Source: an uncultured archaeon
Lineage (GTDB): Archaea; Asgardarchaeota; Thorarchaeia; Thorarchaeales; Thorarchaeaceae
Reading direction: 5' to 3'
Assembly: GCA_964590575.1 (NCBI GenBank)
Contig: CAZPWM010000073.1
Span: 1 to 16,151 of the forward strand
DNA: 16,151 bases
The position numbers and the translations under genes were made by a program. The notes under the pieces are model-generated. The model was given only the letters and a program-made list of their open reading frames with translations, searched no databases and was not told the origin of the DNA. Positions 14,683-15,588 of this stretch are shown here, piece by piece (positions within the stretch are counted from its first letter, which is position 1; every line of letters begins with the position of its first letter).

Positions 14683-15582
14683 TTTCTATCAGGTTTGAGG
14701 AAATCAGAAGGGATGTGCTTATACGGGATATCACTACACTAGAAGACGATGAGAGAACGTTTCACTCCTAGTGAGCGGGATGAACCGCGTGAAGTTTCAA
14801 ACTCTGAGCTTGAACGGATAACGAAAGAAGTCCTAAGAGAAGTAGAGGAGGAACGACTTCGTAATCGAAGATGGGAAAGAGCGCTCTCTAAACTCAAAGA
14901 ATCCGAATCCAAAGAGTCGGAAGAACTGAGTGAGGAAGTCCGCGAAAGAGTCGAGATTGAGTCCGATGACGAAAGTCTTGGATATCTCTTGGGTGCTATG
15001 CGTGACGGATCTGTCTTCTATGACAAAGGAAGTCGAAACTACTTCACAATGTACTATCAAAAACATCGTGAGTGGCTTGAGGACTCAATCTCTCCAAGGA
15101 TGGAGAAACTCTTCGGAAAGGAAGGGAGGATTGAGGAATACACCCCAGGTCACTATCGACTCAAAGTATCATCCAAAGAGCTGTACGAGATGTGGAAACA
15201 AGACTATAACTTTCCACCAGATGGTGAAGGTCAAGGGTCTTGGAATGTTCCAGAAGAAGTCAAGTCAGCTAATACCCATGTCAAAGCATCTTACATACGT
15301 GGTGTGTTCGATACTGAAGGTGATGTATCTCCAGTAAGCAGCAAGAGCTGCTATGTGGGGATAAGTCAAAAGAATGAAACCTTCATCGAAGAAGTAAGAG
15401 GCCTCTTAGAGGAACTCGATATACATCCAGGTAAGACGCATGAAATTGACAAAAAAAGTGGTACACTTCGAATAGCGGTTTCAGAAAGGAAATCGTTACT
15501 TCGATTCATCAAGATTATTGATTCAGAAAATCCCGATAAGCACGAAAACCTTCGGAGAGTACGAAGCCTGTTGGATCAGGAA
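14683..15582 (+). mobile_element. 900-nt archaeal BHB intron at 16S position ~908 encoding a homing endonuclease
   Basis: Removal restores the conserved GACTGAA|ACTTAAAGG; terminal stem TCTATCAGGTTT/AAGCCTGTTGGA; relaxed BHB. Confidence 0.93.
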
Positions 15583-15588
15583 ACTTAA
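14749..15588 (+). CDS. Intron-encoded dual-motif LAGLIDADG homing endonuclease
   Basis: Motifs YLLGAMRDGSV and YIRGVFDTEGDV, plus GISQKN; the stop codon lies in the downstream exon. Confidence 0.9.
   Translation: MRERFTPSERDEPREVSNSELERITKEVLREVEEERLRNRRWERALSKLKESESKESEELSEEVRERVEIESDDESLGYLLGAMRDGSVFYDKGSRNYFTMYYQKHREWLEDSISPRMEKLFGKEGRIEEYTPGHYRLKVSSKELYEMWKQDYNFPPDGEGQGSWNVPEEVKSANTHVKASYIRGVFDTEGDVSPVSSKSCYVGISQKNETFIEEVRGLLEELDIHPGKTHEIDKKSGTLRIAVSERKSLLRFIKIIDSENPDKHENLRRVRSLLDQET

Follow-up and report, generated by a model that had tools for sequence, protein, structure and literature searches.

The 16S ribosomal RNA (rRNA) gene of an uncultured archaeon of the family Thorarchaeaceae is interrupted by a 900-nucleotide intron of the archaeal bulge-helix-bulge (BHB) type, which encodes a LAGLIDADG homing endonuclease and exists, once excised, as a circular RNA. 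The gene lies on contig CAZPWM010000073.1 (assembly GCA_964590575.1), of which we analysed one stretch of 16,151 nt, hereafter called the window. Our preferred interpretation, to which we assign a probability of about 0.75, is that the element is a mobile intron at 16S site 908 of a Thorarchaeota-like Asgard host, that it is processed to a circle by EndA and RtcB, that its enzyme is of the I-DmoI kind, and that the phase of its length relative to the reading frame is incidental. The intron, its covarying BHB, the splicing enzymes encoded by the host, the back-joined RNA, the family of the enzyme and the sporadic distribution of the element are established by the observations that follow.

An Rfam search placed the archaeal small-subunit (SSU) rRNA gene at positions 13812-16104 of the window on the plus strand (RF01959, 1056 bits), and a genome-wide search returned this gene as the only SSU match in the assembly, which comprises 3.4 Mb in 194 contigs and is 91% complete. 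By the same Rfam match, exon 1 spans 13812-14682 and exon 2 spans 15583-16104; the contig runs out at 16151, short of the 3' end of the gene. Conserved 16S sequence is regained when the 900-nt insert between them, 14683-15582 on the plus strand, is deleted. A 3-nt repeat at the boundary of the insert allows the cut to slide from -3 to 0 nt with both products unchanged. The point of insertion is what we take to be site 908 in E. coli numbering, located through the primer site at 907-926.

The two ends of the insert and the adjoining exon sequences form a BHB. Its 5' half (14674-14683, plus strand) consists of helix A at 14674-14676, the central helix at 14677-14680 and a bulge at 14681-14683, with the cut after 14682; its 3' half (15564-15586, plus strand) consists of helix C at 15564-15570 and 15573-15576, the central helix at 15577-15580, the second bulge at 15581-15583 and helix A at 15584-15586, with the cut after 15582. 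Exon bases 14674-14676 pair with 15584-15586, exon bases 14677-14680 pair with intron bases 15577-15580 to give a central helix (helix B) of 4 bp, and helices between intron sequences lie beyond. A pair table drawn up for six homologous introns, including that of the window, contains helices A, B and C and the two 3-nt bulges in every case. The central helix of the window has three standard pairs and one non-standard A·G, which is its first pair. Four of the six introns share this A·G; at the same place L004 has A-U, and L008 has G-C together with a changed exon base. Within helix C2, the pair 14690/15570 covaries, C-G being replaced by U-A in L003 and L004. The splicing endonuclease presumably cuts between the second and third base of each bulge, that is after 14682 and after 15582, and these positions match those demanded by the conserved mature 16S sequence. 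Farther inside, the first 66 nt of the intron (14683-14748, plus strand; the leader) pair with its last 53 or so nucleotides in an interrupted closing stem of about 33 bp, defined by the fold, the pair list and covariation. The stem has a z-score of -4.3 against 300 leader shuffles, none of which was equally stable.

A reading of the DNA made earlier from the letters and open reading frames (the sequence-only reading) had proposed a BHB intron with these splice sites; the pair table, the folds of short introns at the same site and the conservation of 16S rRNA all support it. That the insert is instead a group I intron, a retained expansion segment of the rRNA or an assembly error we regard as practically nil in probability. 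Such a view can draw on the origin of the element in a metagenome-assembled genome and on nothing further, and it is opposed by several lines of evidence: no intron ribozyme family, group I or II, and indeed no ribozyme family of Rfam, reaches its gathering score in the window; the BHB covaries; back-joined RNA is found; contigs 97 kb, 133 kb and 592 kb in length carry homologous introns at this point; and close relatives carry intron-less alleles.

The genome encodes the enzymes that such an intron would need. Two ORFs belong to the EndA family (PF01974, E = 2e-31 and 4e-20, both above the cut-off), and there is one match to RtcB (PF01139, 593 bits, E = 3e-178). ARAGORN lists 33 tRNAs in the genome, of which 17 are intron-bearing and one is a tRNA-Sec. 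In the processing that we propose, EndA would cut both 3-nt bulges, after 14682 and after 15582, and RtcB would carry out two ligations, one giving mature 16S rRNA from the exons, the other closing the intron to a 900-nt circle.

The circle itself was found in environmental RNA. Thirteen metatranscriptome runs (X1-X13) contain part of the intron, with a best word share of 0.43; Logan contigs of four runs were mapped on 14500-15800, and X5-X13, with word shares of 0.04-0.22, lay outside the mapping. A 151-nt contig of run X2 (record 11) agrees with the window at 0 mismatches and jumps from about 15579-15582 back to 14680-14683, a back-jump of 900 nt whose shorter side measures 71 nt. Another contig of X2 (record 8, 825 nt), from a relative with about 88% identity, is permuted through the equivalent junction. 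The X2 depth of the bin 15512-15555, 6.47, equals the sum of the depths of these two records, 4.17 and 2.3. Thus, in X2 the cover of the intron's 3' end turns to its 5' end and not into exon 2. Run X3 contributed a perfectly matching exon contig that stops exactly at 14682 and a perfectly matching intron contig that starts exactly at 14683. Back-joined forms were also present elsewhere. The contig L008 from JGI (1353 nt) runs through exon 1 and an 850-nt homologous intron and then repeats the first 215 or so nucleotides of that intron, and two homologous proteins, P0009 and P0014, continue past the end of the ORF into leader-encoded residues and not into the exon-encoded T.

Together with the arithmetic of excision and the BHB pairing, the back-joined contig defines the intron as 14683-15582 and shows its excised form to be an RNA circle. 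The claim of circularisation in the sequence-only reading is borne out by the metatranscriptome contigs, by L008 and by the two proteins. The RNA evidence consists of assembled contigs, which may include DNA and may drop rare forms. Joints that skip 900 nt in X3 and X4 (sides of 22-25 nt) may stem from intron-less organisms and were not used as proof of splicing; neither were contig depths, which are 2-8 for the intron and in the thousands for the flanking exon contigs, used to rank abundance, and no meaning is attached to the gaps in contig cover of the intron in X1, X3 and X4.

The ORF of the intron, 14749-15588 on the plus strand, codes for 279 amino acids in its unspliced reading and is identified as a LAGLIDADG homing endonuclease by Pfam, by 15 homologues of 62-84% identity and by its likeness to I-DmoI. 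It matches the Pfam family LAGLIDADG_3 (PF14528) with an E value of 6.8e-14 and 52.3 bits against a cut-off of 22.5. In this class of enzymes the catalytic role belongs to the conserved acid that ends each LAGLIDADG motif. Motif 1 comprises residues 77-88 (14977-15012, plus strand) with the acid D86, and motif 2 residues 181-193 (15289-15327, plus strand) with the acid E190; both acids are nearly invariant among the homologues and align with the acids of I-DmoI motifs 1 and 2, respectively. When a profile of the ORF and its 15 homologues was used, the best solved relative by sequence was I-DmoI (E = 9e-8). An AlphaFold model of the ORF (mean pLDDT 84, pTM 0.76) likewise had I-DmoI as its top Foldseek match (E = 7e-11, TM 0.74-0.80 on the target). 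The N-terminal segment of about 70 residues, predicted to be a charged helix, is absent from I-DmoI. The ORF is an intact gene for a monomeric, two-domain, I-DmoI-like LAGLIDADG endonuclease, and by analogy its product would cleave DNA and promote homing.

Homologues also occur outside introns. Free-standing relatives of about 205 amino acids, with stops of their own, were seen in other Asgard families (L014, 275-889; L015, 1486-2106), one of the two in a complete single-contig genome; they have neither the N-terminal extension nor rRNA flanks. No rRNA flanks were detected by BLAST or Rfam for L014, L015 or L016, homologues at E values of 1e-52 to 1e-82, and all three were left out of the count of intron length phases given below.

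The distribution of the intron is sporadic. Of 86 other genomes belonging to the class, 2 gave strong protein matches, and none of the 27 other genomes of the same genus did. A search with the exon 1 flank found the insertion site in 40 of 86 family genomes, including the window's own; 30 loci returned from this search were examined, and thirteen further places had no locus. Sixteen of the 30 loci are intron-less at the exact point and share the same junction sequence. Within the genus, five genomes with the site assembled (G042, G036, G033, G052 and G030) lack the intron and have flanks that are 98-99% identical. Nine other loci carry mini-introns of 30-31 nt, one has a 45-nt insert and two have an endonuclease intron (900 and 740 nt); of the remaining two, one ends at the site and one is without the motif. 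The mini-introns, at the equivalent of 14682/15583 (L039, L047-L052, L054 and L056, with L059 as the 45-nt case), keep the 3' CAG word. Of four that were folded, three (L039, L054 and L050) form helix B, a 3-nt bulge and a hairpin; the minimum-energy fold of the fourth, L047, is without the same helix.

Such a distribution is typical of a homing element at a hot spot, where endonuclease-less remnants also destroy the target site. By analogy with known homing systems, the endonuclease would cut intron-less 16S alleles, into which the intron would then be copied. The mini-introns lie inside the universal primer site at 906-927 and would also shield the site from the endonuclease. One intron-less locus, L032 in genome G056, is assigned to another genus and has an exon 1 flank that is 100% identical to the window over 243 nt, which suggests that the intron was gained or lost very recently or else that binning or taxonomy is inconsistent.

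Inserts of both kinds were seen at further positions. In another Asgard family, L021 (reverse strand, about 1401-2094) has a mini-intron of about 42 nt at site 908 and, 11 nt beyond it, an endonuclease intron of about 640 nt at approximately site 919; its boundaries are approximate, and the TGA of its endonuclease ORF overlaps the 3' boundary placed by BLAST. At the 3' end of the 16S gene, L007 contains a hairpin-like insert of about 35 nt (about 1550-1585) just before the CCUCC tail. It is missing from L006 and may be another mini-intron.

The one unusual trait of these introns concerns the end of the ORF. In the window, the ATG at 14749 follows the 5' splice site by 66 nt (22 codons), and the frame is free of stops through 15582. 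Its TAA at 15586-15588 sits in exon 2, 6 nt past the junction, so that the final two codons, ACT TAA, are exon 2 sequence. The linear excised intron therefore offers an ORF without any stop. The first stop in the ORF frame likewise falls beyond the junction, in exon 2, in five of the six introns (the window, L003, L006, L007 and L008); the contig of L008 falls short of exon 2, and the placement of its stop presumes the consensus exon 2 sequence. In L004, a G-to-T difference creates a TAA two codons earlier, within the intron. The exon-encoded T closes 11 of the 15 homologous proteins; of the others, two cross the junction, one ends like L004 and one ends earlier, aligned just short of the family C-terminus. 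Other rRNA-intron endonuclease ORFs of Asgard archaea have the stop inside the intron in three of four cases (L005, L025 and L022), judged by BLAST-approximate boundaries. The stop-less ORF is conserved in these site-908 introns. Because the leader pairs with the last 53 or so nucleotides of the intron and the last 20 or so must form the BHB, the C-terminal codons of the ORF are dual-coded with RNA structure, the interval 15564-15586 serving both as the 3' half of the BHB and as codons for the C-terminus.

Since the circle is real, the ORF read from it finds a stop only beyond the ligation junction. On unspliced RNA, the ORF would end at the UAA within the universal ACUUAA of exon 2 and yield 279 amino acids. 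On the circle, it would run across the junction and through the leader, which there becomes a 19-codon tail plus stop, to the UAG at 14740-14742 (plus strand), giving 297 amino acids. By frame count, this TAG, 6 nt before the ATG, is the sole in-frame stop in the 300 codons of the circle; the remaining two frames of the circle contain 11 and 27 stops. The sequence-only reading had given the 900-nt insert, the 279-residue unspliced ORF with its TAA in the exon, the 297-residue circle reading and the position of the TAG, and all of these numbers are correct. It was also right that the end of the protein differs by template, at the exon TAA on the precursor and at the leader TAG on the circle. 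A CTAG word around this TAG is found in four of six homologous leaders. The leader also contains a small upstream ORF (14713-14742, nine codons from ATG to TAG) that shares the frame of the main ORF and leaves 6 nt between its stop and the main ATG. Its start codon, GTG in L006, L007 and L003, is part of the closing stem.

For the endonuclease, the circle is the likelier template, a view that we hold at about even odds, because the back-joined form is the intron RNA seen in the contigs. Several points count against so reading the data. No Shine-Dalgarno sequence precedes the ATG: pairing of the 16S tail there reaches -5.4 kcal/mol at best, and GGAG, GAGG, AGGT and GGTG are absent from the 20 nt upstream, in a genome in which Shine-Dalgarno-type words are enriched 3-8-fold ahead of long ORFs. 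A ribosome on the circle or inside the pre-rRNA would thus have to start in some other way. The contig-level RNA evidence is compatible with precursor RNA as well, and both translation and the choice of template are inferred.

The endonuclease might, in fact, be made from unspliced pre-rRNA alone, ending at the UAA of exon 2, with the circle an untranslated by-product. We consider this doubtful, though a serious option. It would explain why the exon stop is in frame in five of six introns and why 11 of 15 called proteins end there, and it yields a product without an extra tail. The exon UAA, however, is part of an invariant rRNA word that is present whether used or not. None of the contigs mapped is colinear from the intron into exon 2, and both X2 contigs at the intron's 3' end turn back, although contigs cannot show absence. 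Initiation inside the nascent rRNA, moreover, meets the same lack of a Shine-Dalgarno sequence.

A promoter within the intron would dispose of that difficulty. The T/A-rich word at 14719-14723, about 28 nt before the AUG, resembles TTATA and could give rise to a leaderless mRNA that would run into the UAA of exon 2; similar T/A-rich words occur in the other five leaders, and both the missing Shine-Dalgarno sequence and the missing stop would be accounted for. We nevertheless judge this very unlikely. Its place in the conserved closing stem is reason enough for the word to be conserved, and upstream of 1554 long ORFs of the genome (with crude start calls) there is no TATA peak at -24 to -32 from the ATG. 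RNA contigs, furthermore, cover the leader continuously from 14683 (X3 record 15 and X1 record 3).

The sequence-only reading went further and took the length of the intron, exactly 300 codons, as meaningful, the circle being one amber codon away from rolling-circle translation. Comparison with homologues does not sustain this. DNA of homologous introns came from a metagenome scan (four loci from 294 pattern matches, three of them close relatives) and a scan of genome contigs (two loci, both already in the set). The lengths of the six introns modulo 3 are 0, 0, 0, 1, 1 and 2, with leaders of 66, 66, 60, 67, 64 and 65 nt; the sample is one of six introns, in which the window and L006 are close relatives. 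The 3' splice site falls on a codon boundary in all six, and the phase of the intron length therefore equals that of the leader length. The homologues thus show the varied length phase, and in L004 the internal stop, that the earlier proposal had named as its own refutation. A length divisible by three has prior odds of one in three, and the 277 open codons are the gene itself. When the 66-nt leader was shuffled (20000 shuffles), at most one in-frame stop remained in a fraction of 0.50 and none in 0.17. Past the junction, the frame ends after 19, 19, 18, 22 and 5 codons, whereas in L004 it never arrives there. All six introns, that of the window included, have an in-frame stop on the circle. 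We conclude that the 3n length and the single stop of the circle frame are probably incidental, because the phase follows from the length of the leader alone, and this length drifts from one relative to another.

The suggested read-through of the UAG into concatemeric protein fares no better. TAG terminates 534 of the 1589 long ORFs of this genome, and no tRNA with a CUA anticodon is among the 33 found by ARAGORN in the whole, 91% complete genome. Read-through and decoding as pyrrolysine were accordingly ruled out, TAG being an ordinary stop with no CUA tRNA found.

It could still be argued that the circle is a selected, near-entirely coding mRNA on which ribosomes make perpetual in-frame rounds, stopping at the UAG and restarting at the AUG, with concatemers in the event of read-through. 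The circle does exist, the UAG 6 nt before the AUG and the 3n length are real in the window and in L006, and the lack of a Shine-Dalgarno sequence at the AUG calls for some unusual start. Even in L007 and L003, whose leaders are out of phase, the frame meets a stop that precedes the AUG by 10 nt or overlaps with it. We hold this proposal to be unlikely, since the length phase is not conserved, the frame of L008 stops 46 nt before the AUG, that of L004 stops before the junction, and P0009 reads on beyond the start region, its visible part being free of stops. Read-through of a normal stop is without support, and half of the shuffled leaders have no more stops in frame than the real one.

A version that does without the length phase is also unlikely. 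The RtcB-made circle could be a true mRNA whose ORF is stop-less by design and completed across the junction, with the ribosome let go at the AUG or beside it in any leader phase and able to restart there. If true, archaea would possess a natural circular mRNA whose ORF spans the junction and on which termination-coupled re-initiation replaces a Shine-Dalgarno start. Such a restart is a live but unsupported idea. In five of six leaders, the first stop past the junction either overlaps the AUG or precedes it by no more than 15 nt, and this stop differs among lineages (UAG, UAA or UGA) and stands in different frames. These near-AUG stops could hint at selection for termination beside the AUG, which would also tell against a wholly incidental frame. 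Under a shuffle null, their probability per locus is 0.09-0.37, and the chance that four of five lineages have one is, by rough arithmetic that takes the shared part as given, about 7 in 100. The leaders are related, however, their first two thirds being fixed by the stem and stop-free by descent; L008 and P0009 are exceptions, and L004 never reaches such a stop. Given this relatedness and the structural constraint, we neither claim the near-AUG stop as a selected feature nor count it as significant.

Two further features of the window stand apart from the intron. The 5'-domain hairpin of the 16S rRNA, at about 14005-14035, has an extra insertion of about 20 nt compared with the archaeal Rfam model. 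On the minus strand, 461-579 is a 119-nt tRNA according to Rfam (44.7 bits) that ARAGORN did not report in the window; it is probably intron-bearing.

Endonuclease-bearing BHB introns at 16S site 908, along with the RNA circles that they form, have long been known from thermophilic Crenarchaeota; the site-908 enzyme of Aeropyrum is presumably I-ApeI. The ORF-bearing rRNA introns of Desulfurococcus mobilis and Pyrobaculum form stable circles (PMC3326292), and a 194-residue endonuclease is described as encoded by, or translated from, the D. mobilis circle (PMC11724312). The same sources describe the I-DmoI intron of D. mobilis as a BHB-type rRNA intron with a stable circle and a monomeric, two-motif LAGLIDADG enzyme (PMC3326292, PMC11724312), as in the window. 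I-DmoI is the closest solved structure to the window's ORF by sequence and by fold, but its intron resides in the 23S gene and not at 16S site 908, identity over the core is about 23%, and the window's enzyme has the additional N-terminal segment of about 70 residues. Site 908 is an endonuclease-intron site in Pyrobaculum, Caldivirga, Aeropyrum and Caldiarchaeum, and short hairpin introns are described at the nearby site 901, none being listed at 908 in the available part of that survey (Jay and Inskeep 2015, PMC4496867).

The introns of those thermophiles share with ours the insertion point inside the 906-927 primer site and an encoded endonuclease (PMC4496867). Their hosts are thermophilic Thermoproteota and Aigarchaeota, whereas ours is an Asgard mesophile from samples of the sediment and salt-marsh type. 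The hairpin mini-introns of archaeal rRNA genes resemble the window's intron in their use of the same site (10 of 30 loci), in the shared 3' CAG and, in three of the four folded, in the central helix, but they have neither an ORF nor a long closing stem. Circular RNAs with infinite ORFs, as described for eukaryotes and viroid-like elements (PMC11724312), are likewise 3n circles with a frame open across the junction. Unlike them, the window's circle is closed by an in-frame UAG, a normal stop of the host, and its 3n length is unconserved (three of six). The portions of the literature on endonuclease-bearing rRNA introns of Asgard archaea and Thorarchaeota that were available contained no description of such an intron.

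In conclusion, the intron is of a known type, the site-908 16S intron, and is new in Asgard archaea. Its occurrence there, together with the circle junction in environmental RNA, extends the range of site-908 introns. Introns and 30-nt mini-introns within the 'universal' primer site at 906-927 can hide their hosts from amplicon surveys. Finally, as the ORF has no stop of its own, the products of the precursor and of the circle differ at the C-terminus, which makes the translation of circular RNA in archaea a testable question.

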